Shown: positions 7,081 to 38,543, counted from the stretch's first letter. The stretch: 49,163 nt of DNA from Candidatus Parcubacteria bacterium (GCA_009995385.1 JAACPT010000003.1:1-49163); one strand, 5' to 3'. Translations and numbers: made by a program. Notes: generated by a model not told the origin, from the sequence alone.

Positions 7081-8310
7081 TTATTTCAATCCATCAGATA
7101 TCGAATAGATCGGTGCGATAAGTGCCAAGGCAAAAAATCCAACTGTCGCACCGATTACCACCATAAGGATTGGTTCGACGATTGTAGATAAGTCTTTAGT
7201 TTTTCGTTCTACTTCTGTTTCGTAGAAGATTGCTAACTCACCCAACATACCAGCTATCTGTCCCGTCTCTTCTCCTACCAGGATCATCTCTCCTACCAAA
7301 ATTGGGTAGAGGTCTTTTCGTTCAATAAACGTCTCCGATAGGGATGTCCCTTTCTCTACACGCGCGGCAGCATCAGCTAAAACTTCTTTGTAAAAAACAT
7401 TTTGTAGGACTTCCTCCGTGATATTAATTGACCGAATCACATCAACACCGGAATTGAGTAGCGAAGAAAGTGTTCGAGCGGTGCGGGCAGCGTTGGTCTC
7501 TTTGGCGAGATTACCAATGACTGGTAAACGTACGATTAGCCATGACGAAGCGATTTTTCCCCACTTCGTGCGAAGAAAATATATAAAACCACCTATCAGC
7601 CCAAAAATCCCCCCAAGTGCAAAGACCGTGTAGTTAACCAAAAAATCACTAACTCCAATCAGGATACTTGTCGTGGCAGGAAGCTCTTTATTCATTCCTT
7701 TAAACACACCAGTTATTTGTGGCATCACGTAAATCATCATCAAAATACCAATAACAAACATGACCGTAACCACAATAGCAGGATAAATCATCGCTCCCTT
7801 CACCTTCTTCTTTAAATTTGAAGCTCGTTCCATCTGAATAGCCAGGGTCTTTAGTGATTCTGCTAAATTCCCGCTCTCTTCTCCTGCTCGCACCATAGAG
7901 ACATAAAGATTATCAAAAGTCTCTGGAAATTCCTTAAGAGTTTCATTAAAAGGGTCACCTTGATTAATGCGCTCGATGACACGTTTTACCACTCCTGTAA
8001 GTCGCGGGTTACTACTTTGTCGCTCGATAACAGAAAGCGCTCGCGTGACGGTAAGTCCAGCAATAAGCATCGAACCAAGATTACGAGTCACCATCACTAA
8101 TTCATCCTCCTTCACTCGACTCATCAAAAAATTGATGCGTTCCATGTTCCAAGCACTCCCCAACTTCAACTTTCCAGGAGCACCAATTGAGGATACGGTG
8201 TGTCCTTGATCACGAGCAATAGAGTAGACAGCAAACCGATCATCGGCTTCCACGGTATTAATGACCTTCTTTCCTTCATGGTCTTCTCCAGTGTATGTGA
8301 ATTTTGCCAT
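7081..8310 (-). CDS. pilC: Type IV pilus assembly platform protein PilC (GspF family)
   Basis: 409 aa with two repeated GspF-type domains (SMLIAGLTVTRAL / SLLNSGVDVIRSI), three TM segments and a C-terminal ALIAPIYSI. Confidence 0.9.
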   Translation of the reverse strand: MAKFTYTGEDHEGKKVINTVEADDRFAVYSIARDQGHTVSSIGAPGKLKLGSAWNMERINFLMSRVKEDELVMVTRNLGSMLIAGLTVTRALSVIERQSSNPRLTGVVKRVIERINQGDPFNETLKEFPETFDNLYVSMVRAGEESGNLAESLKTLAIQMERASNLKKKVKGAMIYPAIVVTVMFVIGILMMIYVMPQITGVFKGMNKELPATTSILIGVSDFLVNYTVFALGGIFGLIGGFIYFLRTKWGKIASSWLIVRLPVIGNLAKETNAARTARTLSSLLNSGVDVIRSINITEEVLQNVFYKEVLADAAARVEKGTSLSETFIERKDLYPILVGEMILVGEETGQIAGMLGELAIFYETEVERKTKDLSTIVEPILMVVIGATVGFFALALIAPIYSISDGLK

Positions 8311-8315
8311 AGTAT

Positions 8316-10064
8316 TTATTCGCTAACGACTCGAAGTACTTCTTCAATGCTAGTAAGACCCTGAGCGGCTTTGAAAATACCATCTTCAATCATCGTGAGC
8401 ATTCCTTCTTTTTTTGCTTGCGCTTCAATCTCATCTCCGGTTTTTCCTTGCATCACCATATCTTTAATAGTCGGTGACATCTCTAGAACCTCATGGATTC
8501 CCATTCGACCTTTATACCCATCTTCTGTTTCCCCTCGTTCTTTAGGGTGATAGAAAGGAATATCATTCCAGGTGGCATCAGCTTTTACAATCCCTTCTTC
8601 TTTTAAGGTTTTTAAAACATGATCTAGATTGACTTTCTTTCCTATCTCGTCTCGCTCTGCTTTGGTAAGAGTGTATGAAAGACGATCAGCTGATAACTTT
8701 CGAACCAAACGTTGTCCGACTGCCACCCGAAGCGTAGAGACGAGCAAAAATGCTTCCGCACCCATATCAACCAAACGAGCAATGGTACCAGCGGCCGAGT
8801 TAGTATGGAGCGTCGCAAGTACCAAGTGACCAGTAAGCGCAGCATTGATTGCCAAGCTAGCGGTTTCTTCATCACGAATTTCTCCCACCATAATAATATC
8901 GGGGTCTTGACGCATCAGTGAGCGGAGACCAGCCGCAAATGTAAATCCAATTTCTGGCTTTACCTGCGATTGGTTAACACGCACCATCTGATATTCAATT
9001 GGATCTTCGATTGTTGAGATATTTACTTCCGGCGTATTGACGATATCGAGGATTGTATACAAAGAAGTGGATTTACCCGAACCAGTCGGGCCAGTGACCA
9101 AAATAATTCCAGTTGTAGCGCGAGTGGCACGGTGTATACGATCGAGTGTTGTACCATGAAACCCAATTCCTTCTAGCGAAAAGCCACTGCGGTTTTCTCG
9201 AAGCAAACGCATAACGACTTTCTCACCATAAAAAACTGGCAACATCGAGACACGAAAGGCAACCTTCTGCCCATCCATCTCCATTTTAAAACGACCATCT
9301 TGCGGTAAACGCTTTTGGTCAAGCTTCAAAGCTGAAAGTACTTTAAGTCGTGCCACGATACTATCGGCAGCAATCTTAGGCAGTTTCATCGCGTCATTTA
9401 AGATACCGTCAATGCGATATCGTACCAATACCTCTTCTTCCATTGGCTCAATATGAATATCTGAAGCACCCTGGATAATTGCATGACGAAGTAACGTATC
9501 AACAATACGCACAACTGGTAAATCCTCCGCCATTTTTTTAAGAGCATGTTCACTCACCTCATCTCCGTCTTCACTCAATATCTTAAGTTCTGAAGCATCC
9601 TTCATGATGAGATCCCCAAACTCATCTTTCAGCGTTTTTTGGTATTGCCGAAGCGCAAACCGCATGGAATCGGTATCGGTCAGTCTCGGCTGGATACGGA
9701 GCTCGACCTTTTTTTTAATGAAATCGATAGCCGGCAAATCAGCGGTATCGAGCATGGCGACTTCGAGTGTTTCATTAGTTTTTTTATACGCAATAATATT
9801 GTGATTGCGTGCCACTGGCTCAGGGATAAGTGTCAATGTCTCAAAATCGATCTTCATGTTCTTCAGCGACACGAACGGAATACCGAGCACATATGATTCA
9901 ACGCGGCGAATGTCGTCCTCCGTCATGTGTCCATGTGCAACCAGTGCTTCACTAAGTGTCCGATCTTCTTCTTTGGCGATTTTTTCAGCAGCACTAATGT
10001 CCGCTTTGGTAATAAGCCCCGCGTCAAGAATAAATCGTTTAAGTTGTTCGTCTTGGATACGCAT
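8316..10064 (-). CDS. pilB: Type IV pilus assembly ATPase PilB (GspE family)
   Basis: 582 aa with Walker A GPTGSGKST, Asp box, Walker B DPDIIMVGEIRD and His box LATLHTN, plus an N-terminal GSPII_E_N-like domain. Confidence 0.9.
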   Translation of the reverse strand: MRIQDEQLKRFILDAGLITKADISAAEKIAKEEDRTLSEALVAHGHMTEDDIRRVESYVLGIPFVSLKNMKIDFETLTLIPEPVARNHNIIAYKKTNETLEVAMLDTADLPAIDFIKKKVELRIQPRLTDTDSMRFALRQYQKTLKDEFGDLIMKDASELKILSEDGDEVSEHALKKMAEDLPVVRIVDTLLRHAIIQGASDIHIEPMEEEVLVRYRIDGILNDAMKLPKIAADSIVARLKVLSALKLDQKRLPQDGRFKMEMDGQKVAFRVSMLPVFYGEKVVMRLLRENRSGFSLEGIGFHGTTLDRIHRATRATTGIILVTGPTGSGKSTSLYTILDIVNTPEVNISTIEDPIEYQMVRVNQSQVKPEIGFTFAAGLRSLMRQDPDIIMVGEIRDEETASLAINAALTGHLVLATLHTNSAAGTIARLVDMGAEAFLLVSTLRVAVGQRLVRKLSADRLSYTLTKAERDEIGKKVNLDHVLKTLKEEGIVKADATWNDIPFYHPKERGETEDGYKGRMGIHEVLEMSPTIKDMVMQGKTGDEIEAQAKKEGMLTMIEDGIFKAAQGLTSIEEVLRVVSE

Positions 10065-13728: not shown

Positions 13729-14841
13729 ATGTCACATTCACACGCACACGAAGTCGATTTTAAAAAAGCATTTACCATAGAAACACTTCCTGGTTCAATG
13801 GTTAAAATATCAGGTGAACTACCGTACGTTGAACTGCAAAGCGAACGAAATGCTGCCATGGTAGCACTCGGGAAGAATGTCGAGTTACCTGGTTTCCGCA
13901 AAGGACACATTCCTACTCCCGTACTCGAAAAGCATTTAGGCGAAATGACTATCCTTGCCGAAATGGCGGAGCGAGCCATTGCACATGCGTACCCCCACAT
14001 CATCGATGAACATAAACTCGACGTTATTGGGCAGCCAAAAATTGAAGTAACCAAACTTGCTCCAGAGAACCCATTTTGTTTTACCGCAACAGTGGCGGTA
14101 CTCCCTACTTTTGAGCTTCCTGATTACAAAACTATCGCCAGGGAAATCAACAGCAAGCGTCCCTCTGATGAAGTAACTGACGAAGAACTCTCTGAAAGAA
14201 TTAAGGACATCCAGCGACAGAAGGCTGCTTATGAACGAATCCAAGCAAAGGCAGCCAACAAAGAAGAAACTTCAGAATTACCGACTCCTGAAACAGAAGA
14301 AAATGAAAAGACACCACTTCCTGAACTTACCGATGAATATGTAAAGAGGCTCGGTCAACCGGGACAGTTCGAGACGGTCGCTGATTTTAAGACAAAATTA
14401 CGTGAACATCTTGAGATTGAAAAGAAGCAACAAAACGCCGCCAAACACCGAGCCGATATTACTGACAGTATTATTGCCAAAATGGAAATTGTGCTACCGC
14501 AAATACTCATTGATTCAGAGATACATCAGATGTTTGCACAGATGGAAGAAGACATCACTCGCGCCGATCTCAAGCTAGATGATTATCTGACACATATTAA
14601 AAAGACTAAAGACGAACTCAAAGCTGAGTGGACCCCAGCCGCCGAGATTCGTGCCAAACTCCAGCTTCTGCTTAATGAGATTGCCAAAAAAGAAAATATT
14701 ACTCCTGATCTAGAAGAAGTAAATAAACAGACGAACGAACTACTGGAGCGGTTTAAAGATGCTGACGAACACCGTGTTCGACTCTACGTCGCTTCGGTAC
14801 TCCTTAATGAGAAAGTGATGAAGATGCTTGAGACTGCCTAG
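13729..14841 (+). CDS. tig: Trigger factor lacking the central PPIase domain
   Basis: Has the ribosome-binding signature PGFRKGHIP and the TF N- and C-domain pattern (PELTDEYVKRLG..., LIDSEI...). I moved the start to the ATG at 13729, because the upstream part of the track ORF overlaps the terminator. Confidence 0.85.
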   Translation: MSHSHAHEVDFKKAFTIETLPGSMVKISGELPYVELQSERNAAMVALGKNVELPGFRKGHIPTPVLEKHLGEMTILAEMAERAIAHAYPHIIDEHKLDVIGQPKIEVTKLAPENPFCFTATVAVLPTFELPDYKTIAREINSKRPSDEVTDEELSERIKDIQRQKAAYERIQAKAANKEETSELPTPETEENEKTPLPELTDEYVKRLGQPGQFETVADFKTKLREHLEIEKKQQNAAKHRADITDSIIAKMEIVLPQILIDSEIHQMFAQMEEDITRADLKLDDYLTHIKKTKDELKAEWTPAAEIRAKLQLLLNEIAKKENITPDLEEVNKQTNELLERFKDADEHRVRLYVASVLLNEKVMKMLETA

Positions 14842-24134: not shown

Positions 24135-25226
24135 ATGCATTACTTGACTGATGGCATCATTTTTATACTGACTTGGTATTTAGCGTTCACTAATATGCTT
24201 GCGACTGAAATCCAGTCTTGGCTTGTAGATACAAACGAAACACCTACGATACTCACTGAAGAAGTGCCAGAAACGCACCGATTGTCGTGGCTTCCAAGTT
24301 CCATCGGAGAAGCAATCCCTAATATTCTCCTCCAAAGCGCGGAATACCAGCAAGCTGCAGTTAGTGGCGCAACTGGCCTAACTGGCAGTACCACTGATGA
24401 ACCTTTAGAAGCTATTGTTAATATTTTTTGCACACTTACCACTGACGATTACATTCGTACAACGACTGGTACTGGTTTTTTTATAGATCCTGATGGCGTC
24501 ATTATGACTAATGCCCACGTCGCTCAGTTTCTTTTATTTGAAGCCACTGAAGAAATTGGTGATACCGATTGCACCATACGAAGTGGCAACCCTGCCGCAC
24601 CACAGTATCATGCCGAACTTTTATATATTCCACCTAGTTGGATACAGCAAAATGCCACAGTAATGAGTGCAGAAGTACCAATGGGGACTGGCGAACGTGA
24701 TTATGCACTACTCTATGTCAGTAAGCGTGTCGATGGTGCTCCCCTGCCTGCCTATTTTCCCGCTCTATCATTTAATGCTAAGTTGCTACCCCTTTCGATC
24801 AGAGGTAGCACCATCACGGCAGCTGGCTACCCAGCCACAGCGTTACTTACCAACGGACCTAACGCCGACCTTATTCCTCAAAAAGCAACTTCAACAATTT
24901 CTGAACTGTATACTTTTGGCTCAAATTACGCTGATGTCCTTTCAATCAGTGGAAGCGTCGTTGGAGCTGAGGGTGCTTCTGGTGGTCCTGTACTCAATCA
25001 AGACGGAGACGTCATTGGTGTTATTGTCACACGGGGAGACGACAGTACCGATGGTGCTGGTAGTTTACGGGCTATTTCTTTATCTCACATTGAAAGAACT
25101 CTTATGCAAGAAACAGGATTCTCCCTGGCACAAAATCTCAGTGGTAATCTACCCTACCGAGCAAATATATTTGCTAAAACCTTGTCACCATTCTTGCTAG
25201 CAATCCTCCAACAAGCTAATTATTGA
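24135..25226 (+). CDS. Trypsin-like (S1/S1C) serine protease, membrane-anchored
   Basis: 363 aa with GTGFFIDPDGVIMTNAHV (catalytic His), DYALLYV (Asp) and GASGGPVLNQDGDVIGVIV (Ser). Confidence 0.8.
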   Translation: MHYLTDGIIFILTWYLAFTNMLATEIQSWLVDTNETPTILTEEVPETHRLSWLPSSIGEAIPNILLQSAEYQQAAVSGATGLTGSTTDEPLEAIVNIFCTLTTDDYIRTTTGTGFFIDPDGVIMTNAHVAQFLLFEATEEIGDTDCTIRSGNPAAPQYHAELLYIPPSWIQQNATVMSAEVPMGTGERDYALLYVSKRVDGAPLPAYFPALSFNAKLLPLSIRGSTITAAGYPATALLTNGPNADLIPQKATSTISELYTFGSNYADVLSISGSVVGAEGASGGPVLNQDGDVIGVIVTRGDDSTDGAGSLRAISLSHIERTLMQETGFSLAQNLSGNLPYRANIFAKTLSPFLLAILQQANY

Positions 25227-28439: not shown

Positions 28440-29031
28440 ATTTCACATGAAACGAATTGATTGGATAAAAAAGATACCCCTAATTGAAAATATGTTTCAC
28501 GTGAAACGTATTGAGTTTTGTTTCATATGTAACATATGGATATAAGTAAAGGTAAAATATTTTTTACTCTTCAGTACAGCTAGTTGTATTATGAGATCAA
28601 TCGAGAATTACGTTCCTAATATATTTTAACGTTGCATATTTTTCACGTGTAACAATCCTTACTGCAATAACATCAATTTCCCAATCTCCTTTATACTGAT
28701 TTTCTTGAATCCAACTCTCTATGGCACGATTCAGACGGTTAATCTTTGCGCGATGAACATTATCCTCCGGCTTCCAAGTTTCACGTGAAATAGAAAGTTT
28801 TAGATCTTGTTTAGTTTCATATGAAACTGTTTTTACTTCAATAAAGCGTATTACTCCAGTTTCACGTGCAACGATGTCAATCTCACCCCATTTTTTAAGA
28901 TAATTAGTGTCTACTATTTCAAGACCTCGTTGCTGTAAGTATTTTGCGGCAATCGACTCTCCATATCCACCAATTATGTTTCGTCTTCCTTTCTTTTCAG
29001 TTTGTTTCATATGGAACGTTTCACGTGAAAC
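28440..29031. repeat. Array of nine parS-like 14 bp palindromes (core GTTTCACGTGAAAC)
   Basis: Sites, with mismatches to the core:
- 28440-53 ATTTCACATGAAAC (2)
- 28494-507 GTTTCACGTGAAAC (0)
- 28520-33 GTTTCATATGTAAC (3)
- 28640-53 TTTTCACGTGTAAC (2)
- 28778-91 GTTTCACGTGAAAT (1)
- 28814-27 GTTTCATATGAAAC (2, still palindromic)
- 28859-72 GTTTCACGTGCAAC (1)
- 29004-17 GTTTCATATGGAAC (3)
- 29018-31 GTTTCACGTGAAAC (0)
The core equals the central 14 nt of the canonical ParB/Spo0J site TGTTNCACGTGAAACA. Confidence 0.7.
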
Positions 29032-29088
29032 GTATTGCTTGATTAGTTGATAGTCTTTGTCTGATAATATGGCTTTAATTATAGCCAA
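28597..29088 (-). CDS. yraN: YraN-family (UPF0102) endonuclease-like protein
   Basis: 163 aa with GGYGESIAAKYLQQRGLEIVDTNY...GEIDIVARETGVIRFIEVKT, the YraN signature. The alternative start ATG at 29010 (MKQTEKKGRR...) would give a more typical 137 aa protein. Confidence 0.8.
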   Translation of the reverse strand: MAIIKAILSDKDYQLIKQYVSRETFHMKQTEKKGRRNIIGGYGESIAAKYLQQRGLEIVDTNYLKKWGEIDIVARETGVIRFIEVKTVSYETKQDLKLSISRETWKPEDNVHRAKINRLNRAIESWIQENQYKGDWEIDVIAVRIVTREKYATLKYIRNVILD

Positions 29089-29131
29089 TAGCTTAAAAGG
29101 ACATGATTACTTTACATCTGTTGATTGTCCT

Positions 29132-29160
29132 TTATCCACCTATACACTTGTTTATCCACA
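29132..29160. promoter_or_regulatory. Two same-orientation DnaA-box matches (TTATCCACC, TTATCCACA)
   Basis: 29132-29140 has one mismatch and 29152-29160 is a perfect match to the consensus TTATCCACA. Both lie in the 125 bp spacer between yraN and tRNA-Gly(GCC). Confidence 0.5.
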
Positions 29161-29170
29161 GTTCTTACAA

Positions 29171-29200
29171 AAAAGCGACACTCATTTGTAGGCGTCGCTT
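29171..29200 (-). terminator. Terminator hairpin downstream of tRNA-Gly(GCC)
   Basis: AAAAAGCGAC-ACTCATTTGTAGGC-GTCGCTTTTT. T-runs follow the stem on both strands. Confidence 0.55.
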
Positions 29201-29212
29201 TTTATTGACACT

Positions 29213-29284
29213 GTGCGGCCAGGGAGAATCGAACTCCCGACTAATCCTTGGCAAGGACTCATTATACCACTTAACCATGGCCGC
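29213..29284 (-). tRNA. tRNA-Gly (anticodon GCC)
   Basis: Reverse-strand hand fold with acceptor GCGGCCA/TGGCCGC, anticodon stem AGTCC/GGATT with loop TTGCCAA, and T arm GGGAG-TTCGATT-CTCCC. No encoded CCA. Confidence 0.9.
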
Positions 29285-29288
29285 AAGG

Positions 29289-29957
29289 TTATTTTGAAAG
29301 TTTTTTTACAAACAGTTCAGTCCAGCGATCGAGTTTACACTTCAGAGCTGTGCTGCCGATTATAGTATTTCCTGTGCCATTGTGCAACGTCTTTCTTGTT
29401 GGTGTACCATTGGAAATTTGATTTTTATGAAACTGTGAATAAGGAATCCTAATAGCGCGTTGCCATTTTCTCATAGCTGTTTCTTCCTTTACATCGCTTG
29501 GTAGGAGTAACCAAAAGTGAACATTATTTTTTGATATACCTAGGTAATCAAAGGCAAATCTGATGAATATTTGATGAGCATCCATCCGAGTAGTGGAGAA
29601 ACGAATGGTACTTTTATCCTTGCGGTTGCCAAGCGCCAGATACAGCGCTAGTCCAGCCATGAAAAAAGGGTCTTTTTTGTAGTGTTTAAACTCTGTCTCA
29701 GCCGCACGACCAACCTCTACGTACCGCGACTGACGTTCGCCACGCCGTGCTTTAGCAACAAGAGTTAGGCGTTTAGCATTTTCAATACCAGCTCTTTTAA
29801 CATTCTGTGTGGTTATTTCAGCTGAAAAAGGCTTATCCTTCAACCATTTTGAAGCTGTGGACTTGGAAATGACACAGTATTTAGCGATCTCCTGCAGCGT
29901 AAAGCCCCGCATACGCAAACTGACGACTTGCTCATATTTCTCACGATTTCGAACCAT
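29289..29957 (-). CDS. N-terminal helix-turn-helix DNA-binding protein, function unknown
   Basis: 222 aa. The resolvase / sigma-r4-like HTH is RGFTLQEIAKYCVISKSTASKWL. I do not recognise the basic middle region or the C-terminal domain. It ends 5 nt before tRNA-Gly(GCC). Confidence 0.6.
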   Translation of the reverse strand: MVRNREKYEQVVSLRMRGFTLQEIAKYCVISKSTASKWLKDKPFSAEITTQNVKRAGIENAKRLTLVAKARRGERQSRYVEVGRAAETEFKHYKKDPFFMAGLALYLALGNRKDKSTIRFSTTRMDAHQIFIRFAFDYLGISKNNVHFWLLLPSDVKEETAMRKWQRAIRIPYSQFHKNQISNGTPTRKTLHNGTGNTIIGSTALKCKLDRWTELFVKKLSK

Positions 29958-30150
29958 ATATCATATATAGCATATACTATCTATATTTGTTCGATTAACC
30001 TGTTGGTAATTTTTTGAGAATTTAGATTAGTATTGATTTTTATTAACTACTTAAGTAAGTCAATGTTAGTGCTTCATAGACACTCCCAATTATGGACATG
30101 CCGCATTGCCAAACAGCCGTTTTCGCCGTATGATAGTCACACCTAGAAAA

Positions 30151-30222
30151 GCGCCTATGGTGAAATGGATATCACAACTGACTTCGGATCAGTCGTTCTG
30201 GGTTCGAGTCCTGGTAGGCGCA
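30151..30222 (+). tRNA. tRNA-Arg (anticodon UCG)
   Basis: Hand fold with acceptor GCGCCTA/TAGGCGC, D arm GTGA/TCAC, and anticodon stem ACTGA/TCAGT with loop CTTCGGA. No encoded CCA. Confidence 0.9.
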
Positions 30223-30250
30223 CAGTAAATTTCCGGTACAATGACCAGTT

Positions 30251-31723
30251 ATGTCCATTCGTCAGATAGACATCCCAATTGAAGTAAAGCAAGTAGCAAA
30301 AACCCTTGAAGATAATGGTTTTGAAGCTTTTATTGTGGGCGGTTGTACGCGAGACCTTATGCTTGGAAAGACCCCAAAAGACTGGGACCTGACTACAAGT
30401 GCACAGCCCACTCAAATTCAAGCGTTATTTCCAGAACACTACGCTAATAATGACTACGGCACTATCGGTATCAAGACAGAATCAGACGACGATACTTTAA
30501 AAATCATTGAGGTCACGCCGTACCGCGCTGAAGGTAGATACACTGATGCCAGACGTCCAGACAGCGTCACTTTTGGCGTCTCACTAGAAGAAGACCTTAA
30601 ACGTCGTGATTTTACCGTTAACGCGCTAGCTTTTCGTATTTCTACTGGTGCACTCATCGATCTTTTTGAAGGTAAAGATGATCTTGTAGCAAAGCGATTG
30701 CGGGCAGTAGGGAAGGCTGAGGAACGATTTGCGGAGGATGCACTTCGCATGATGCGGGCAGTTCGCTTGGCAGCTGAACTTAATTTCATGATTGAAGATG
30801 AAACCATGTCAGCTATCGTAAAAAACAGCAACCAATTACGCCGTATTTCTGTTGAACGGGTTACCGGTGAGTTTTTACGCACCCTTAATTCTCCGACCCC
30901 CATGCAAGGAATTGTCCTAATGGAAAAATTAGGGTTATTAGAGCATTTCTTACCAGAACTCCGTATCGGAATTGGGGTAGAACAGGGGGGAGCTCACATT
31001 TATGACGTCTACGAACATCTTCTACGCACCATGCAAGCGGCGGCAGATAAGGATTTCTCCCTAAAGTTACGCTTGGCAGCACTTTTTCATGACATTGCAA
31101 AACCGCAGACACGAAGGGAAGGAGGTAAAAACAAACAATACACCTTCTTTGGACACGAAGTAGTGGGAGCACGGATGACTAAAAAGATACTGGAGCGCCT
31201 CAAACTTCCCCGTGAGACAATAGATGAAGTGGTAAATTTAGTCCGTTGGCATATGTTTTTTGCTGATCCCGAAGAAATTACCTTGGCGGCAGTACGGCGT
31301 ACTATTACTCGCATCGGAGAAGATCACATCGAAGAATTACTTAATCTTCGTGTCTGTGACCGTATTGGTATGGGAAGACCAAAAGAGCAACCATTCCGCT
31401 TCCGTAAATACAAGGCTCTGGTTGATCAAGCCCTTCGTGACCCTATTTCAGTAAAAATGCTCAGAATTGACGGAGTTCGTATCATGGAGCTAACAGGAGA
31501 AAAACCAGGGAAAAAACTAGGCTACATCCTGAATGCTCTGCTTGAAGAAGCCCTGGAAGATGCGAGTAGAAACACGTCAGAATATTTAGAAAAACGTACA
31601 CTAGCGCTTATACAACTACCTGAAGACGAATTGTTTATTCTGGCTGAAGCGGGGAAACAAAAACAAGCAGCAGAGGAATCAGCGGCTTTAAAGGACATTG
31701 CTCGGGAACACCATATAGGGTAG
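30251..31723 (+). CDS. cca: CCA-adding tRNA nucleotidyltransferase with HD domain
   Basis: 490 aa with GGCTRDLMLGKTPKDWDLTT (polymerase-beta nucleotidyltransferase head), RRDFTVNAL and the HD motif LFHDIAKP. Confidence 0.9.
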   Translation: MSIRQIDIPIEVKQVAKTLEDNGFEAFIVGGCTRDLMLGKTPKDWDLTTSAQPTQIQALFPEHYANNDYGTIGIKTESDDDTLKIIEVTPYRAEGRYTDARRPDSVTFGVSLEEDLKRRDFTVNALAFRISTGALIDLFEGKDDLVAKRLRAVGKAEERFAEDALRMMRAVRLAAELNFMIEDETMSAIVKNSNQLRRISVERVTGEFLRTLNSPTPMQGIVLMEKLGLLEHFLPELRIGIGVEQGGAHIYDVYEHLLRTMQAAADKDFSLKLRLAALFHDIAKPQTRREGGKNKQYTFFGHEVVGARMTKKILERLKLPRETIDEVVNLVRWHMFFADPEEITLAAVRRTITRIGEDHIEELLNLRVCDRIGMGRPKEQPFRFRKYKALVDQALRDPISVKMLRIDGVRIMELTGEKPGKKLGYILNALLEEALEDASRNTSEYLEKRTLALIQLPEDELFILAEAGKQKQAAEESAALKDIAREHHIG

Positions 31724-31745
31724 TCTTTTATAAAGGACATATTAG

Positions 31746-31771
31746 AAAAACGGCCCTGTTGAGCCGTTTTT
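31746..31771 (+). terminator. Rho-independent terminator after cca
   Basis: AAAAACGGC-CCTGTTGA-GCCGTTTTT. Confidence 0.65.
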
Positions 31772-31793
31772 CGGTATTTCCGCACCCACCTAA

Positions 31794-31991
31794 CTATCGT
31801 AGTGGCCCTATACACATTCTTGTTTGCACTTCATTAGAGTTAGGTAAGCTCATTTCAAAATCTATTCCAAAACAGGGAGAGTCCTGGGAATAGAGGGATT
31901 CAAACGGTATATAGTAGATATGTAATATCTGAGTTAGAAGAAACAAAATGAAAATAAGTGCTGCGACAATAAACTTCCATTTTCTTTTCAC
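31794..31991 (-). CDS. Possible small membrane protein (65 aa, GTG start)
   Basis: There is one clear TM segment (FIVAALIFILFLLTQIL). There is no RBS, the start is non-ATG, and I recognise no homology. It could be a chance ORF. Confidence 0.25.
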   Translation of the reverse strand: MKRKWKFIVAALIFILFLLTQILHIYYIPFESLYSQDSPCFGIDFEMSLPNSNEVQTRMCIGPLR

Positions 31992-32577
31992 TACAAAAAG
32001 TATAACATGTTGGTCACCCGTACTCTGTGCCAGTATTATTCTAAATTACAATGAAACATTCGCATCGATAGTACTCGGAATATGGATGGGCACTTAACCC
32101 CGTCCAGGAATTCACGCTAGGAATTGCGTGAATTCGGACGTAAATTCACAATATGTCCTTTGGGCACTTGTTCATTTAAAAAAAGACCTGAAGGAATCGG
32201 GAGCCAATCTGTAGTGATTATCAGCTGCCGGTGCCTTCAGGTCTTATAATAAATGAGCTTGCTGTTGGAGGATTATGGTAATCCAAGTGGGCGCTTACAA
32301 TTGAAGCTAACCCGATCCGAAGCTCTACGTTGTTGCGAGAGATGTACGTTATTCCGACTTTGCGCTTCTAGATGATTTGCAATGTCTGTACTCTCTCTTA
32401 TAGGGTGGGATGTTATGAACGTTTTGAGTAAGAGTCTTTTGACTCTTGGAGGTAATACTCAATTGTATTTTGGAAGATCTCTTTAAGGGGAACCTCGAGG
32501 GAGTTGGTTAGAATTGTTTCTACTCAACTCTCTCGAGATGCCTGCTCGCCCTTTCTGGGCCTGTCACTATAGTAGTC

Positions 32578-32640
32578 TTTGTAAAGGACAGTGTAAAGGA
32601 CAGTCTTGTGGATAACTGTTGATAAGTTGTCCTTTACAAA
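32578..32640. repeat. Iteron-like unit: a 13 bp inverted repeat enclosing a tandem 12-mer and two DnaA-box matches
   Basis: TTTGTAAAGGACA (32578-90) pairs with TGTCCTTTACAAA (32628-40). GTAAAGGACAGT is tandemly repeated at 32581-92 and 32593-604. TGTGGATAA at 32607-15 is a perfect DnaA box, and TGTTGATAA at 32617-25 has one mismatch. Confidence 0.6.
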
Positions 32641-32833
32641 TTTACTTGACTAAATTACGTTCCGTGTCTTTCTTATACTATACTTTTTGGTTCAGCTAGT
32701 GCGTGGGATGTATTAGCAGTAGTAAATCATCCCGTAGCGATTTCTAATTATAATAAGGTCTCCTGTCCGACTACATAAATAATGGAGCGGGGGCGATTGA
32801 TCTCTGCCAATATATTTTATGTAAGAATGAACA

Positions 32834-33631
32834 TTATAAATCAAGGCTTAATTCAACTGAAACAGGGCAGTGGTCGGAACCCATGACATTTGAGTGGATG
32901 CGCGCGTTCTTAATCATCGGAATCAAATCTTTCGAGGACATAATATAATCAATACGCCAACCAATATTTCGTTCACGAGCTCCGGCAAAATGTGACCACC
33001 ACGTATAATTATTTCCTTCCTGATTGAAGAGTCGAAAGGTGTCCGTAAAACCCTTATCTATCATCGCTTCTATGCCAGCACGCTCCTCATCAGTAAAACC
33101 TTTCTTACCTCGATTTTCTTTTGGCCTGGAAAGATCAAGCTCAGTGTGAGCAACATTGAAATCTCCACAAAAAATAACTGGTTTTACTTGCTGTAGTTGA
33201 TCCATATATTCCAAATAGGCAGGGTCCCATTGCTGTCGCATGGCAATACGTGAGAGGTCATCTTTGGCGTTTGGGGTATATACCGTACTGACAAAGAATG
33301 GTTCAAATTCAGCCACCATGGTTCGTCCCTCTTTCAGAGTATCACCGTACTCATCTGCTAGTTGGTATTTGGTGGCGATGTTCGCTGGCAACCCATGCTG
33401 CACAGCAATTGGGGTGTGTTTTGTAAATATAGCTGTTCCAGAGTACCCTTTGCGCTCTGCCGAAAACCAATACTCTTCGTAGTCTTCAAAATCAAGATCA
33501 ATCTGGTCTTGATTTGCTTTGGTTTCTTGTAGACAGAGGATATCTGGCTGGTGTTCAGCTAAAAATGGCTCTAATAGACCTTTTTTATGTACGGCACGAA
33601 TTCCGTTTACGTTCCATGAATAGATTTTCAT
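32834..33631 (-). CDS. xth: Exodeoxyribonuclease III (AP endonuclease)
   Basis: 265 aa with MKIYSWNVNGIRA, LCLQETK, GDFNVAH and SDHCPV motifs. Confidence 0.95.
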   Translation of the reverse strand: MKIYSWNVNGIRAVHKKGLLEPFLAEHQPDILCLQETKANQDQIDLDFEDYEEYWFSAERKGYSGTAIFTKHTPIAVQHGLPANIATKYQLADEYGDTLKEGRTMVAEFEPFFVSTVYTPNAKDDLSRIAMRQQWDPAYLEYMDQLQQVKPVIFCGDFNVAHTELDLSRPKENRGKKGFTDEERAGIEAMIDKGFTDTFRLFNQEGNNYTWWSHFAGARERNIGWRIDYIMSSKDLIPMIKNARIHSNVMGSDHCPVSVELSLDL

Positions 33632-33727
33632 ATCTAGCTAGTCTACCTGATAATAGAAAACTATAAAATGTATCACTTACTTTCTCCTACTCTCCTCAAA
33701 TGCACTTTTTCCCTATAAAATAGACAC

Positions 33728-34651
33728 ATGAAAATAAGAACCTATTCAGTAATCATTGGGTTAGTCATTTTAATAATCGTCGGTGCTCTCTATTTTTCTC
33801 AAGAAAGAATGGCAGCAACTACAGTAGTAGGTAACACGCCAAGTGAAGTATCGATACCAGAAATTTCAACCACAAAAACAGTAACCGCCCTTGAAAGCAA
33901 CGTTGAAATTGGTACTGAAGGTTTTGCGACCAATGTTGACGTAAGCGGTGCGGCATTTGATGAACCAGTGCTAATCACTTTTGAGACTGACGGTGATTCG
34001 CTACACACGATAGCAGTACCAACTATCGAGCTTCCGCTCTGTGCTGCATACGGAAAAATCGCTGACGTAAACGATATTTTAATTGGAGACAGACTATCGG
34101 TTCGCGGCATGACTGATGAGGATGGTCGCCTTGTCCCTTGTGACAGCGACCTACATTTCCTCACCATTAGTACAGTGTACACCGATGAAACTACTGGACT
34201 GACGTTCGTATACCGAAAAAGTCCTGATGGATATCTACGAGAGGGTGATGAGTACAAAATTAGCACTGATCCAAACTTTGTGACTGGAGTTGCATTAACT
34301 ACAAAAAAAGGAGCCCTTGAGCTTCTTTTGAGCGACGTCCCGCGGGAGTTACCACCAAGCATCAAACTTCGTGTCTACAAAAATTCTGAGGAGCAGTCTC
34401 CTCTAGAGTGGGCAAAGGCAAATGCTGTCGAATCAAATTATGCATTGGCACTCTTTGAGCCAGCAGAAATATCGGTAGGGAAAAGAGAAGCAGTTGGGTT
34501 CACGGCTGACGGACTATATATGGCCAAAATATATATAGTTGCCTTTGGTGAAAATATACTTACTATCACCGGAGAATACCTTGAAGAGGATTCAATGGCA
34601 TATCGTGATATTGAGCAAATAGTTAATACTGTTTCCTTTTCTAAGAGCTAA
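33728..34651 (+). CDS. Membrane-anchored extracytoplasmic protein, function unknown
   Basis: 307 aa with an N-terminal TM segment (VIIGLVILIIVGALYF). I recognise no domain. Confidence 0.6.
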   Translation: MKIRTYSVIIGLVILIIVGALYFSQERMAATTVVGNTPSEVSIPEISTTKTVTALESNVEIGTEGFATNVDVSGAAFDEPVLITFETDGDSLHTIAVPTIELPLCAAYGKIADVNDILIGDRLSVRGMTDEDGRLVPCDSDLHFLTISTVYTDETTGLTFVYRKSPDGYLREGDEYKISTDPNFVTGVALTTKKGALELLLSDVPRELPPSIKLRVYKNSEEQSPLEWAKANAVESNYALALFEPAEISVGKREAVGFTADGLYMAKIYIVAFGENILTITGEYLEEDSMAYRDIEQIVNTVSFSKS

Positions 34652-34682
34652 AGGAAATAACTCTCCGTGATATAGTACTGTA

Positions 34683-35258
34683 GTGAACAAGAAGCAATTC
34701 ATTGTCAGCGTTATAGCTGATTTTGCACCAATTATCGCTTTTGTTGTAGCTACTGAATTAGCAGGATTCATGATTGCTTTGCTGTGGCTCGTCGCTGTGG
34801 CGATACTTTCCGTTATCATCGAGTGGACTGTTTCTCGAAGACCACCGAAATTTGGTTTAGTAGCATCAGTGACGATTTTCTTGTTTGGTGTATTATCCAT
34901 CGTCACTGGAGATGAATTCTATATCATCATCAAGGATACTCTTTATGCTCTTTCTTTTGCGGTTGCATTACTCCTTGGACTATTATTTAAACGTTCATAT
35001 CTTGAGGTACTTTTTGGTGACTATTTTGCAATTACCAGAAGGGGATGGTTTGTTTTAACGTATCGTTGGATAATTTTCTTCTTTTTACTGGCTATTACGA
35101 ATGAATTTGCTCGCACGTTGTTGGTGCCTGATGTTTGGATTTACTACAAATTAGTAGCCGTACTCTCGACCTGGGTCTTTGGTTTTTATCAGCTCACCCT
35201 GACAAAACGTGAGCGACTTCCTGAAGCAAATACCTGGGGACTCCGCCAATCACAATAA
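34683..35258 (+). CDS. Polytopic inner-membrane protein, possibly the YciB/IspZ septation-protein family
   Basis: 191 aa with a GTG start and five hydrophobic helices. The size and architecture are like YciB. The assignment rests on overall pattern only. Confidence 0.4.
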   Translation: MNKKQFIVSVIADFAPIIAFVVATELAGFMIALLWLVAVAILSVIIEWTVSRRPPKFGLVASVTIFLFGVLSIVTGDEFYIIIKDTLYALSFAVALLLGLLFKRSYLEVLFGDYFAITRRGWFVLTYRWIIFFFLLAITNEFARTLLVPDVWIYYKLVAVLSTWVFGFYQLTLTKRERLPEANTWGLRQSQ

Positions 35259-35301
35259 TCTTCTTGTTATCTCGGTGGATTTTGGCGTATAGTGTCAGAG
35301 C

Positions 35302-36555
35302 ATGAAAAAAGCGGCACCAACGGTGTGGGATGTAATCGTAATTGGTGGTGGACCAGCTGGAATGATGGCTGCTGCCCGAGCTGGCGAACGTGGTAAAACG
35401 GTCCTTTTACTTGAAAAGAATACCCGACTGGGCGTAAAGCTTTCCCTCACCGGTGGCGGTCGTTGCAATGTCACCAATAACAAAACCGACGTGCGGACGA
35501 TGCTCACTAATTATAAAGACGCTGGAAAATTTCTCTTTTCTACGTTCACGAAGCACGGAGTAGCAGAAACGATACAGTGGTTTGCAGGAAGAGGGATTAC
35601 TTTCCATGAAGAGAACGAGGGAAGACTGTTTCCAATAACTAACTCAGCAGAAACTATTAGGAAGACCCTGATTGATGCCTTACGGGAGCAGCAAGTATCG
35701 ATACGAGTGGGGGCGATTGTCAGCGCCATTTTACACGACGTCGAGACGGGACTTTTTACTATACAACTTTCTAATGGGAAGATATCGCACAGTCACTCAT
35801 GCATCGTTGCCACTGGTGGTATGTCACGACCAGAGACGGGTTCAACAGGGGAGGGATTTTCCTGGTTGAGCACCCTTGGTCATACCATAAAGAAAGATTC
35901 TCTCTCACTAGTACCCCTCATGCTCCATGACACGTGGGTAGAAAAGATACGTGGTGTTACCATACCTGATTGTAAAATTACCCTCTACAGTGGTGATAAA
36001 AAACAAAAAGCCCAACGTGGAAAGATACTCTTTACACACACTGGAGTAAGTGGGCCGACGATATTAAATATAAGTAGCATGGTAAAAGAGCTACTACTTC
36101 ACGGGACGGTGACCCTAGTCCTTGACCTTTTCCCTGAACTAGATGACAAGGCTCTACGAAGCAGTATACAAGAACTGCTACTCATCAATTCCAACCAAAA
36201 AATAAAAAATGTCCTTGCCAGGATCGTTCCACGAGCGCTTGCGTTGATCATTCTGGAATTATTGAAAATAAATAGTGAAACACCAACGCACAGTCTCCTC
36301 GCCAAAGATCGAGTTATGCTCGTATTTTTTCTCAAACATTTTCCACTGCACGTAAAAGGACTACTCGGCGCCGACAAAGCAATTGTCTCTAGTGGTGGAG
36401 TTTCACTGACTGAAATAGACTTTAAAACAATGGGTTCTCTTATCGTCCCTAATCTCTTCTTAGTTGGCGATGTACTAGATATCGATCGACCCTCAGGAGG
36501 GTATAGTCTGCAGCTTTGTTGGAGCACTGGATATGTGGCTGGGAGCAGTGCGTAA
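35302..36555 (+). CDS. HI0933/BaiN-family FAD-dependent oxidoreductase
   Basis: 417 aa with the dinucleotide fold VIVIGGGPAGMMAA, GGGRCNVTN, ATGGMS and a C-terminal GGYSLQLCWSTG. Confidence 0.85.
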   Translation: MKKAAPTVWDVIVIGGGPAGMMAAARAGERGKTVLLLEKNTRLGVKLSLTGGGRCNVTNNKTDVRTMLTNYKDAGKFLFSTFTKHGVAETIQWFAGRGITFHEENEGRLFPITNSAETIRKTLIDALREQQVSIRVGAIVSAILHDVETGLFTIQLSNGKISHSHSCIVATGGMSRPETGSTGEGFSWLSTLGHTIKKDSLSLVPLMLHDTWVEKIRGVTIPDCKITLYSGDKKQKAQRGKILFTHTGVSGPTILNISSMVKELLLHGTVTLVLDLFPELDDKALRSSIQELLLINSNQKIKNVLARIVPRALALIILELLKINSETPTHSLLAKDRVMLVFFLKHFPLHVKGLLGADKAIVSSGGVSLTEIDFKTMGSLIVPNLFLVGDVLDIDRPSGGYSLQLCWSTGYVAGSSA

Positions 36556-36647
36556 CTGTGCTGTGCACTGAACGTATTGACGAAGAAGCTCAATCGGGAT
36601 TAGACTTACCCTCGGATTTCTTGGCTTTTTACCTTGAAGGAGAAATT

Positions 36648-36953
36648 ATGACTACTTTAAAAGACGGTAAGCAGTATTTGCTTGAAGCCTTCCAATGTTC
36701 TTTTGACCAAAATTTTCAGGAAAGGATGCTGCAGCAAGTAGAAGCAATGACGGCAATTCAGAATTCGCAATGCGTTTGGGAAAAACTTCCTCATGCTGAG
36801 CAACAACGATGCGGTTCAATTGAAAATCACCCGCAGGGCATGGAACTTTGCATTGAAGAATGGATTAAAACCGGCAAGGCAGAACAGTGGGGAGACTCAT
36901 ATGTACAGACGCAACATAACTTAGATATCAATAGTATATCTACTGGTAAGTAA
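36648..36953 (+). CDS. Hypothetical protein (101 aa)
   Basis: Start set at the ATG at 36648, preceded by GAAGGAG. The longer track ORF (from 36516) overlaps the previous gene. A strong terminator follows. Confidence 0.45.
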   Translation: MTTLKDGKQYLLEAFQCSFDQNFQERMLQQVEAMTAIQNSQCVWEKLPHAEQQRCGSIENHPQGMELCIEEWIKTGKAEQWGDSYVQTQHNLDINSISTGK

Positions 36954-36974
36954 ACATTACTTACCAGTTTTTTA
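36942..36974 (+). terminator. Rho-independent terminator
   Basis: ACTGGTAAGTAA-ACA-TTACTTACCAGT (12 bp stem) followed by TTTTTT. Confidence 0.8.
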
Positions 36975-37015
36975 TTTGCGTGCAGGAGTACTATCAGCAT
37001 ATACTACGGCGCATC

Positions 37016-37765
37016 ATGGAATACATTCAGACACTTTGTCTTCGTCTTCTGACTGAAAAATACCAAGGCAACACAAGTGAATCCTATCAACAAGATTGTG
37101 ATCGTTTAAAGAAAGGTGAACCGTATGAATACGTCTTAGGACACGTAGATTTTCTAGGTGCCAAAATTGATCTTTCACTTCATCCAATGATTCCTCGACC
37201 AGAAACTGCTTTCTGGGTAGAAAAAGCTATTGTTGAATTGAAAGGGAAACCTGGACCACTTCGCCTTGCTGATATTTTTGCGGGATCGGGAAATGTAGGA
37301 ATTGCCTTACTAACACATCTCCCAAACGCAACCGTCGACATCTCTGAATTAGACCCAATGCTCAAAGAGCAAATTGAGAAAAATATCATATTAAATACTA
37401 TTGCACCAGAACGAGTACATGTGATAAGTGCCTCTGTCATTGAAGGCCTAACGGGGGAATACGATGCAATCTTCGCAGTACCACCATATGTACCGTATGT
37501 GGCATTACCTGAACTAGACCAAGAAATGATCGAATTCGAACCGCATCTGGCTTTCTTTGCACATGAAGATGGACACGAATTTCATCGTGCACTAATACAG
37601 AATACTTTGGATTTCCTTACCAAGGGAGGTACGTTGTACATGGAAGCTGATATGGACCATAACGAGGCTATCAAGAAATTGGTAAAGGGGACGCAGTGGT
37701 CAAAGCTAGAATTCTGGTCTGACCCGTACGGGGCAACGCCAAATGTCGTCTTGCGAAAAGAGTAA
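37016..37765 (+). CDS. prmC: HemK/PrmC-like N5-glutamine methyltransferase with a VPPY motif in place of NPPY
   Basis: Has the SAM motif DIFAGSGNVGIAL and the motif IV region AIFAVPPYVPY...EFEPHLAFFAHEDG, which aligns with the HemK sequence NPPY...FEP..AL. The start is taken at the ATG at 37016, after the upstream terminator. Confidence 0.7.
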   Translation: MEYIQTLCLRLLTEKYQGNTSESYQQDCDRLKKGEPYEYVLGHVDFLGAKIDLSLHPMIPRPETAFWVEKAIVELKGKPGPLRLADIFAGSGNVGIALLTHLPNATVDISELDPMLKEQIEKNIILNTIAPERVHVISASVIEGLTGEYDAIFAVPPYVPYVALPELDQEMIEFEPHLAFFAHEDGHEFHRALIQNTLDFLTKGGTLYMEADMDHNEAIKKLVKGTQWSKLEFWSDPYGATPNVVLRKE

Positions 37766-37844
37766 TTTCATTCAGGGTATCTATTTCTGGAATACAACGT
37801 ATACTTACCCTTACCGCGGTTTAGTAGCTAACATATAAAAATGT

Positions 37845-37934
37845 ATGACAGACCTGAAAAAAGAAGAAACCGTAGTTGCTACTCCAACCACCGATACTCA
37901 GAAACCAGAAGCTGGAGAAGAAAAGAAAGCATAA
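37845..37934 (+). CDS. Possible 29-aa hydrophilic micro-ORF (MTDLKKEETVVATPTTDTQKPEAGEEKKA)
   Basis: An ATG-to-TAA ORF followed 13 nt later by a perfect terminator. It has no RBS and no recognised homology. Confidence 0.2.
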   Translation: MTDLKKEETVVATPTTDTQKPEAGEEKKA

Positions 37935-37947
37935 ATATATACCTTAT

Positions 37948-37974
37948 AAAAAACACTCTGCAGAGTGTTTTTTA
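37948..37974 (+). terminator. Rho-independent terminator
   Basis: AAAAAACACTCTG/CAGAGTGTTTTTT, a perfect palindrome with a T-run. Confidence 0.7.
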
Positions 37975-38059
37975 TTTTACCCCTATCGTGGCAGTGCAGT
38001 TATTCCGTTTGCAATGTATCTTCTCGGTATGGTTTAATTTATTGTTTTTACACCACCCT

Positions 38060-38146
38060 GCTGGAGTGGCGAAATTGGTAGACGCGCTACGTTCAGGTCG
38101 TAGTGGGGGCAACCCCATGGAGGTTCAAGTCCTCTCTTCAGCACCA
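38060..38146 (+). tRNA. tRNA-Leu (anticodon CAG), CCA encoded
   Basis: Has acceptor GCTGGAG/CTTCAGC, the class II D region GCGAAATTGGTAGACGC, anticodon stem CTACG/CGTAG with loop TTCAGGT, a long variable arm (TGGGGGCAACCCCAT) and a 3' ACCA. Confidence 0.9.
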
Positions 38147-38342
38147 ACGAGTTTACGAGGAGATGATGAAGAAGCAGAATCCAAGGGGACTTTGTCAGCA
38201 CATATTTGTATTATTTAAAATATACTCTTGTGTTTTTACATGGGTATGCTTTAATACTGAAACGAAACGACGCTCCTCTGACGTTTTGAAGAAAGACCAG
38301 ACGAAGTGATGTTTTGTTTACAATAATTAGATCTACATATAT

Positions 38343-38543
38343 ATGAAGGGTTCAATCGTACGAAAGCGCACAGAAGGTTACGGGTTCATCAAGCCAGAAA
38401 ACGGTGAGAAAGATGTATTCTTCCACGCTTCTGCACTTGTTGATGTCGCTTTTGACGACCTCAACGAAGGAGACGTTGTTACATTTGAAGTTGAGCAGGG
38501 TCCTAAGGGTCCAGCTGCAGCTAATGTACAGCGCGCTGCGTAA
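38343..38543 (+). CDS. Cold-shock domain protein (CspA family)
   Basis: 66 aa with the RNP1-like GYGFI and RNP2-like VFFHAS motifs. Confidence 0.95.
   Translation: MKGSIVRKRTEGYGFIKPENGEKDVFFHASALVDVAFDDLNEGDVVTFEVEQGPKGPAAANVQRAA

Follow-up and report, generated by a model that had tools for sequence, protein, structure and literature searches.

In several bacteria the sites of a second regulator lie among DnaA boxes, examples being the 0A-boxes of Spo0A (TGTCGAA) in the Bacillus subtilis oriC and the sites of CtrA in the Caulobacter Cori, of MtrA in Mycobacterium and of HP1021 in Helicobacter. DnaA-box clusters and DnaA-regulated promoters also occur outside oriC, as with the B. subtilis clusters and the dnaA, sda and nrd promoters, and tandem direct-repeat operators that cover or replace a -35 element are familiar from the Pho boxes of PhoB/PhoP and the heptad repeats of CtsR. 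The oriCII/gidA region of Pseudomonas aeruginosa is a further example of DnaA boxes outside oriC (PMC13438810). Here we describe a 49,163-bp stretch of DNA (the window) from an uncultivated Paceibacteria/Parcubacteria bacterium of the candidate phyla radiation (CPR), known from aquifer metagenomes, in which a short word, TAAAGGACA with its 8-mer core AAAGGACA, flanks DnaA boxes and overlaps the core elements of two promoters in the block between the genes yraN and xth. We consider it probable that its copies are operators of one sequence-specific regulator that is shared widely among Patescibacteria (Paceibacteria) and acts together with DnaA.

Clustering and conservation of the motif

An earlier note on this DNA, made from the sequence alone, had listed eight copies of AAAGGACA within 3.5 kb, six of them extending to TAAAGGACA, where about 0.1 copies would be expected. 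All eight are present at their positions and on their strands, the window holds no other TAAAGGACA, and the order-0 expectation was computed as 0.13 copies in 3.55 kb. The note had counted a single copy in the remaining ~45 kb, at 13900; there are actually two outside the dense region, the copy at 24935 having been missed. The 10 copies in the 49,163-bp window compare with 2.4 expected from dinucleotide-preserving shuffles, none of 100 of which reached 10, and the 9-mer TAAAGGACA occurs 6 times against 0.42 expected per 49 kb by the same kind of shuffle, with all 6 copies between 29126 and 32636. The 3.5 kb that holds 8 of the 10 is 7.2% of the window (binomial P for at least 8 of 10, 2.9e-8). 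When all 8-mers of the window were scanned for clustering, with no word chosen beforehand, the strongest local clustering was shared by AAAGGACA and the parS words CACGTGAA/ACGTGAAA.

For comparison, 27 syntenic loci from species-representative genomes were fetched with the 222-aa helix-turn-helix (HTH) protein encoded within the block; their neighbouring proteins are ~55-90% identical to those of the window. Across 19 related loci, the syntenic block from xth to yraN has 99 copies of AAAGGACA in 104 kb (0.95/kb) and the DNA outside it has 7 in 258 kb (0.027/kb), a 35-fold difference, so that on these counts the word is not common everywhere and is not a dispersed repeat. The motif architecture recurs in the related syntenic loci, with position, orientation and helical phasing conserved in 22-28 of them; the sites stay in place from species to species although the non-coding DNA around them has diverged, and single substitutions are tolerated (e.g. 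AAGGGACA and AAAAGACA). Seven of the eight sites are conserved in both position and orientation, the exception being the copy at 32154. Together with recurrence in distant lineages (below), these fixed positions, orientations and phasings support the view that the copies are functional and behave as sites for one sequence-specific DNA-binding protein. The note had proposed iterons or operators of one DNA-binding protein; its binding-site reading agrees with these observations, and its iteron reading fared less well, as discussed below.

Motif copies at two promoters

Cluster B (32582-32636) forms the promoter of an unannotated minus-strand RNA gene, and all its parts are given here on the minus strand. 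A consensus scan placed a -35 hexamer, TTTACA (32597->32592), 17 nt ahead of a -10 box, TACTAT (32569..32574). The hexamer lies inside copy B2 (32594..32602), being made up of the TTTA of its 3' half plus CA, and copy B3 (32582..32590, reading TGTCCTTTA in the sense of the RNA) falls within the 17-nt promoter spacer, at about -28 to -20; both copies thereby overlap core promoter elements. Between B2 and copy B1 (32628..32636), which is opposite in orientation to B2 and B3, lie two DnaA boxes 10 bp apart (32607..32625, about -50 to -70), the perfect box TTATCCACA and TTATCAACA, flanked upstream by B1. This layout is kept in all 22 loci compared: B2 is exact and always 41 nt ahead of GGCCCAG, a conserved block at the RNA 5' end, B3 is present either 12 bp downstream of B2 or flipped 8 nt nearer the -10, B1 stands at -74/-73 or -64/-63 with at most one mismatch, and a TAYWAT -10 follows at identical spacing in the same -35/17-nt/-10 arrangement. 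The relatives have one or two DnaA boxes here, and the B1-B2 distance shifts by one box unit (33 vs 22 bp). In the close clade a conserved element, TTGACaAAATTGTGTTTCGTGT (32646-32667), is found ~10 nt beyond B1; it has a perfect -35-like TTGACA, and no -10 follows.

Cluster A (29095-29160) overlaps the -35/spacer region of the promoter of yraN (28597..29010, minus strand), a gene of the nuclease-like UPF0102 family that lies downstream of the cluster. This promoter has a poor -35 and a TATAAT -10 box (29078..29083, minus strand; GCTATAAT is conserved in relatives). Copy A2 (AAAAGGACA; 29095..29103, plus strand; TGTCCTTTT in the sense of yraN) ends 11 nt upstream of the TATAAT, at about -31 to -23, and so also overlaps the core promoter. 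Copy A1 (TAAAGGACA; 29126..29134, minus strand) is inverted relative to A2 and abuts or overlaps a head-to-tail array of DnaA boxes (29132..29160, plus strand) that consists of TTATCCACC, a degenerate middle box and TTATCCACA. Among 28 loci, A2 is present in 26, the GGTGGATAAAGGACA of A1 is almost invariant, and 2-4 head-to-tail GTGGATA-type (DnaA-like) boxes occur in 27; A2 and A1 are 30 bp apart in 17 loci and 19-20 bp apart in 5. Clusters A and B both carry DnaA boxes at about -50, and in each the spacing variants (33 vs 22 bp in B, 30 vs 19-20 bp in A) are roughly a helical turn, or a DnaA-box unit, apart, which suggests a phasing requirement.

The region runs in the order tRNA-Pro, yraN, cluster A, tRNA-Gly, the 222-aa HTH gene (29289..29957, minus strand), tRNA-Arg, cca (30251-31723, plus strand), 1.1 kb free of open reading frames (ORFs) and xth (32834-33631, minus strand), and the other motif copies are found at and beyond the 3' end of cca. 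Copy C1 (31689..31697, plus strand) lies inside the last cca codons (L-K-D-I), and copy C2 (31731..31739, plus strand), 42 bp from C1, lies just past the cca stop and before the cca terminator (31746-31771). C1 is exact in ~12 of 20 relatives and broken by synonymous changes in the remainder, and C2 is found 42 or 32 bp from C1 in ~6 relatives; we regard the two (31689, 31731) as a weaker pair, partly under coding constraint. The last copy, CAAAGGACA (32154..32162, minus strand), just downstream of the RNA terminator, is not conserved, and relatives carry a small covarying hairpin there instead; it is probably a chance occurrence and not a functional site. The copies are thus distributed as the earlier note had it, over both DnaA-box clusters, the cca stop region and the island, with the reservation that the one in the island at 32154 is probably due to chance and that at 31690 (C1) partly to coding.

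A metagenome scan for tandem TGTCCTTTANNNTGTCCTTTA recovered at least 120 loci. Among the matches listed, 54 have a DnaA-like box directly upstream, most of them with the motif module in the synteny xth, module, cca, yraN, and in most of these 54 listed loci cca is 47-64% identical. Motif-dense matches around yraN were also among those listed, with up to 16 copies in locus L069. In that locus (7919-8895) xth and cca are adjacent, and 14 of the 16 copies, which are of the ATGTCCTTTAGAA type, surround yraN as an iteron-like expansion of cluster A.

A structured RNA gene at cluster B

The earlier note had called the stretch between cca and xth an 'ORF-free island'. The stretch does contain a gene, for a structured RNA, and cluster B is its promoter. 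The gene (~385 nt; 32178..32562, minus strand) is unannotated, and has its 5' end ~7 nt after the -10; at its 3' end a long hairpin (32185-32243), which is conserved, precedes a T-run. In some of the assemblies the contig stops within xth, not in the island. Alignment of the island showed ~400 nt of strong conservation with covarying hairpins, and RNAalifold (17 sequences) gave 63 pairs, 29 of them with compensatory changes. In a 54-pair subset, 92.8% of cells are paired, vs 37-47% when the partners were slid by 1-3 columns, and 0 of 500 shuffles matched the observed value. Read on the minus strand, the pairs include frequent G-U, far above A-C mismatches, which fixes the RNA strand as minus; the promoter and the hairpin with its T-run are on the same strand and agree with this direction. 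The RNA is conserved in >20 related loci; CCUCCAA occurs in it twice as an invariant single-stranded motif, and there is also a C-rich stretch, CAUCCCACCC. An ORF of 65 aa (31794-31991, minus strand) lies in the island's variable part, and its N-terminal half is hydrophobic and transmembrane-like.

Rfam gave no match in the window at gathering scores, and in the island, at E up to 10, only chance-level microRNA and small nucleolar RNA matches; in 7 relatives and 13 distant loci it found tRNAs only. ARAGORN found no transfer-messenger RNA (tmRNA) in the window, and no signatures of RNase P, signal recognition particle or tmRNA were seen by eye. On these negatives, from Rfam in the window and 20 other loci and from ARAGORN, assignment of the island to a known RNA family was rejected. 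When the RNA was compared by nhmmer with the transcripts that follow the module in distant lineages, only four close loci matched. Those transcripts carry a boxA-like GTTCTTTGAAA 20-100 nt after the -10 in seven loci (L057, L077, L155, L168, L137, L154 and L163), often with an additional copy of AAAGGACA over the start site; a ribosomal RNA leader was considered, but no ribosomal RNA gene lies downstream, and the idea was rejected. Action of the motif at the RNA level was likewise rejected, the copies being upstream of the predicted transcription starts and on both strands.

A candidate regulator

The tandem scan also surfaced, as a motif-dense context, a gene of ~250-300 aa, here called X, that is divergent from ftsK-(108 aa)-recA. 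Motif arrays lie in and around X in four loci fetched by motif (L062, L073, L074 and L111). Another five X loci were chosen by protein identity and hence independently of the motif; in these, AAGGACA has a density of 5.2/kb in X +/- 250 bp vs 0.11/kb elsewhere, an enrichment of 47-fold. Some copies precede X, some fall at its start codon, and others form a 12-bp tandem within the gene. Every X locus examined is packed with the motif, both in the gene and in the region ahead of it, which suggests autoregulation. The C-terminus of X gives weak matches to winged-helix families, the N-terminus a weak match to the bAvd-like four-helix bundle in one of four homologues, and the recognition segment EKTIQREL ... 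G-x-RRW-x-x-Y is invariant. There are at least 1550 homologues, and those with a source name come from Patescibacteria, Paceibacterota or Parcubacteria. X is the best candidate for the protein that binds the motif, better than the neighbouring 222-aa HTH protein, and we would put its chances a little short of even.

The DNA downstream of X (L171 10930-11400, L173 10910-11360, L174 10880-11280, L176 11000-11430) contains a terminator, a perfect DnaA box and, 33 nt on, a TATACT -10, along with a conserved non-coding stretch, ...CCAGCTAGCCGATGGGACGC..GTCGATA.TGCG..; this stretch has no Rfam match, and may be a second DnaA-box-driven RNA or the long leader of the next gene.

Discussion

To judge from the arrangement of their sequences, the yraN and RNA promoters look like a pair jointly regulated by DnaA boxes and the motif, and like part of a small regulon widespread in Patescibacteria. 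Both are promoters of the sigma-70 type. At the RNA promoter, B2 supplies the -35, B3, 12 bp downstream, fills the spacer, and the inverted B1, 33 bp upstream, sits beyond the two DnaA boxes; at the yraN promoter, A2 overlaps the -35 and spacer, and the inverted A1, 30 bp upstream, abuts the three-box DnaA array. A protein bound there would be in competition with RNA polymerase, and this occlusion, with the good consensus elements of the RNA promoter, leads us to infer that its action is most likely repression. The upstream copy would aid cooperative binding across the DnaA boxes, and DnaA, at about -50, would be a co-regulator that ties both promoters to DnaA status. X, if it is the binder, would occupy these sites and regulate its own gene. 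A wider scheme is possible, if doubtful: a phylum-wide circuit coupled to DnaA, in which X would bind the TAAAGGACA sites that sandwich DnaA boxes and, with DnaA, gate three targets, namely the X gene with the divergent ftsK-recA operon, yraN within its parS cluster, and the conserved unclassified structured RNA.

Several points weigh against the operator interpretation or narrow it. The -35 of the yraN promoter is poor, so that activation there is possible. The conservation of B2 is owed in part just to the -35 hexamer, and C1 appears to be a DNA-level feature only in part, coding constraint providing part of the explanation. The window sequence was found in DNA metagenome runs only and in no RNA runs. 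X is encoded neither in the 49-kb window nor in the related loci, and its presence in the organism is assumed from the breadth of the family; Pfam support for its winged helix is below the curated cut-offs. Within X, several copies coincide with codons for conserved K-G-Q and K-D-I, and some of the enrichment there could come from constraint on the protein; the invariable choice of AAA-GGA-CA codons argues for constraint at the level of DNA.

A rather unlikely alternative is that the copies are accessory sites of a chromosomal origin, where a lineage-specific factor beside the DnaA boxes controls initiation and any effect on transcription is secondary. It is true that the 49 kb contain just two perfect DnaA boxes, one in each cluster, that three head-to-tail boxes abut A1 and that parS-like palindromes stand directly beside cluster A. 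There are nine matches to GTTTCAYRTGAAAC with at most 2 mismatches, three of them exact, at 28440-29031, vs 1.1 expected in the whole window; multiple copies of the 16-bp palindrome tGTTTCACGTGAAACa are the mark of parS. These palindromes lie in and around yraN, several of them inside its coding sequence, their clustering is conserved in relatives, and they are probably the centromere-like ParB loading region of the chromosome. Bulk GC skew has a local minimum at the locus and is higher on the yraN side in 18 of 18 relatives, and gene orientation diverges from the locus. However, the bulk shift follows gene orientation: the strand-corrected skew at third codon positions does not reverse, being ~-0.19 (1-29 kb), -0.04 (30-38 kb) and -0.175 (38.6-49 kb) on the top strand of the window and falling from +0.22 to +0.045 in 15 relatives. 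No dnaA, dnaN or parB turned up in the window, or in any relative within +/-10 kb, clusters A and B are separated by anything from ~3 to 8 kb in the relatives, and neither an AT-rich unwinding element nor DnaA-trios were recognised by inspection of the aligned flanks. Moreover, a promoter downstream of X, the third to do so and without sequence relation to the other two, has a TTATCCACA box at about -50, which fits DnaA acting as a transcription factor. Given the unreversed skew, this third promoter and the other negatives, we treat the boxes as regulatory DnaA sites; the replication origin with iterons that the earlier note had implied is hard to square with the skew, with the varying cluster distance and with sites that overlap core promoters, and an origin at this locus seems to us doubtful. 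As a separate observation, ~8 kb of the window (30200-38500) is nearly without strand asymmetry (~-0.04) between two regions of ~-0.18, and a weak-skew flank is seen in the 15 relatives as well.

The earlier note had named the unassigned HTH protein at 29289..29957 as the nearest candidate binder, and in its full form this explanation supposes a bipartite origin whose two DnaA-box clusters are both bound by the protein, the copies being its iterons or operators. We find this quite improbable. The gene does lie between the clusters, is syntenic in 27 related genomes and encodes the sole predicted DNA-binding protein inside the block; members of the family have a uniform length, and neither their N-terminal arm nor their recognition helix varies; in an AlphaFold2 model (predicted local distance difference test, pLDDT, 85.7) the chain begins with a three-helix HTH, continues as a long helix and ends in an alpha/beta domain. 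However, the module is kept in distant lineages where the family is largely missing: of 19 loci spanning cca to yraN among the matches listed, 12 have no family member and one has an orthologue. At locus L039 the local HTH gene is of a paralogue type, 26% identical, and the motif is unchanged, and paralogues with the same recognition helix occur in loci that have no motif clusters. The protein's own conserved upstream region and promoter contain no AAAGGACA site, and autoregulation was rejected, what is conserved in this region being another element, AAATCGAACA ... TATAAT, which shows no enrichment elsewhere. Nor does the layout suit iterons: at least three direct repeats of ~17-22 bp in phase were not found, the core being 8-10 bp and each cluster having one 12-bp tandem pair and one inverted copy, and no adjacent Rep or winged-helix initiator was found, the 222-aa protein matching no informative family in Pfam, NCBIfam or PHROGs and only generic HTH. 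Foldseek, run with the full model and with the C-terminal domain, gave no significant match to solved structures, and no Rep-like fold was seen. The neighbouring 222-aa HTH protein is, from this comparative record, unlikely to be the binder.

A LAGLIDADG/WhiA-like identity for the 222-aa protein, considered for a LAGLIDADG-like pattern in it, was rejected: the one match to LAGLIDADG_3 was sub-threshold (E = 0.06) and came from one distant homologue, a profile search of PDB sequences was negative, and the AlphaFold2 prediction for the C-terminal domain (pLDDT 85) differs in strand order from the alpha-beta-beta-alpha-beta-beta-alpha fold of LAGLIDADG, with a best Foldseek TM-score of 0.40, to YfiB. 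The block upstream of the HTH gene (29958-30010, and the same position in L011-L037; AAATCGAACA ... TAGTATATAATATAC) is not repeated elsewhere in the window and ends ~5 nt before the ATG, so that the messenger RNA is probably leaderless or nearly so. Divergent paralogues (25-30% identity) are scattered among tRNA genes between cca and yraN (L026 4572-5237; L030 8032-8709 and 10690-11355; L033 7952-8629; L039 3631-4302). They differ from the 222-aa orthologues in having a YWxEGxK ... NSD pattern, the cca-HTH and HTH-yraN spacers vary by kilobases, and the paralogues may represent a mobile or formerly mobile gene family.

It is highly improbable, in our view, that the motif is read by RNA polymerase itself, as an extended -35 or UP-like element or as the -35 of an alternative or extracytoplasmic function (ECF) sigma factor, with no separate regulator. 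B2 contains the -35 in 22 of 22 loci, and 2-4 kb away there is a syntenic gene for an ECF sigma factor, together with its putative anti-sigma partner. However, the copies occur in both orientations, in the spacer, 60-75 nt upstream, at the cca 3' end and inside the X coding sequence with no -10 following, and the promoter-proximal copy flips while the -10 stays put. ECF -35 elements typically have an AAC core, which the motif lacks, and the -10 boxes are TATAAT of the housekeeping type. As for chance clustering, a dispersed repeat or the remnant of a mobile element, the word was indeed chosen after the sequence had been viewed and the 32154 copy looks like chance, but the enrichment statistics, the 35-fold density inside the block in 19 relatives, the fixed positions in 22-28 loci and the deep synteny, stable down to 47% cca identity with no recombinase or transposase at the locus (which also led us to reject mobile-element ends or attachment (att) sites), refute it for practical purposes.

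Regulation by a motif-binding protein acting with DnaA, the interpretation we prefer, would bear on a group about which little seems to have been written. Targeted literature searching on gene regulation and cell-cycle control in uncultivated Patescibacteria (CPR) yielded nothing relevant, and as far as we found almost nothing is known; no description of the motif, of X or of the RNA was found, and a search with the motif string gave primer coincidences only. The locus offers a near-invariant 8-9-bp word that persists between lineages with a protein identity of only ~50%, promoters of fixed layout in which this word is coupled to DnaA boxes, a candidate regulator family of >1500 members with no assigned function, and a ~385-nt RNA that is supported by covariation and has no Rfam family. 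Motif, promoters, X and RNA are all approachable in vitro or in a heterologous host, with no need to culture the organism. If the DnaA-coupled circuit around X is real, it would be a minimal switch for the cell cycle and chromosome maintenance in organisms with very few transcription factors. For annotation, we would caution that DnaA-box clusters beside parS sites are insufficient evidence for oriC in these genomes.

Comparison with known systems

Iterons such as those of RepA and RctB, initiators of plasmids or secondary chromosomes, share with this locus a repeated short word near DnaA boxes and a nearby gene of unknown function. The present core, however, is only 8-10 bp, each cluster has at most two tandem copies, the setting is chromosomal and deeply syntenic, and there is no Rep-type protein. 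Closer in geometry are the Pho boxes and CtsR operators, where, as here, the -35 and spacer are covered by a pair of direct repeats spaced by roughly a helical turn (12 bp in our case). The period of 12 bp in place of 10-11, and the extra inverted copy 22-33 bp upstream, set our locus apart from these, as does the inversion of the promoter-proximal copy in some lineages, which suggests that the motif is recognised monomer by monomer.

As with Spo0A, CtrA, MtrA and HP1021, a short asymmetric motif in multiple copies flanks or overlaps TTATCCACA boxes, and a second protein could compete or cooperate with DnaA there. In contrast to those systems, our locus does not show the reversal of strand asymmetry expected of an origin, its sites overlap core promoters, the sequence of the motif differs, the candidate binder is not a response regulator, and the lineage is one of uncultivated CPR bacteria. 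The likeness to DnaA-regulated promoters lies in perfect or near-perfect boxes at a fixed distance upstream, away from any demonstrable origin, where DnaA would be a transcription factor. What distinguishes the promoters described here is that each of them has 2-3 copies of a second motif that sandwich the boxes, and that one of the targets is an unclassified structured RNA.

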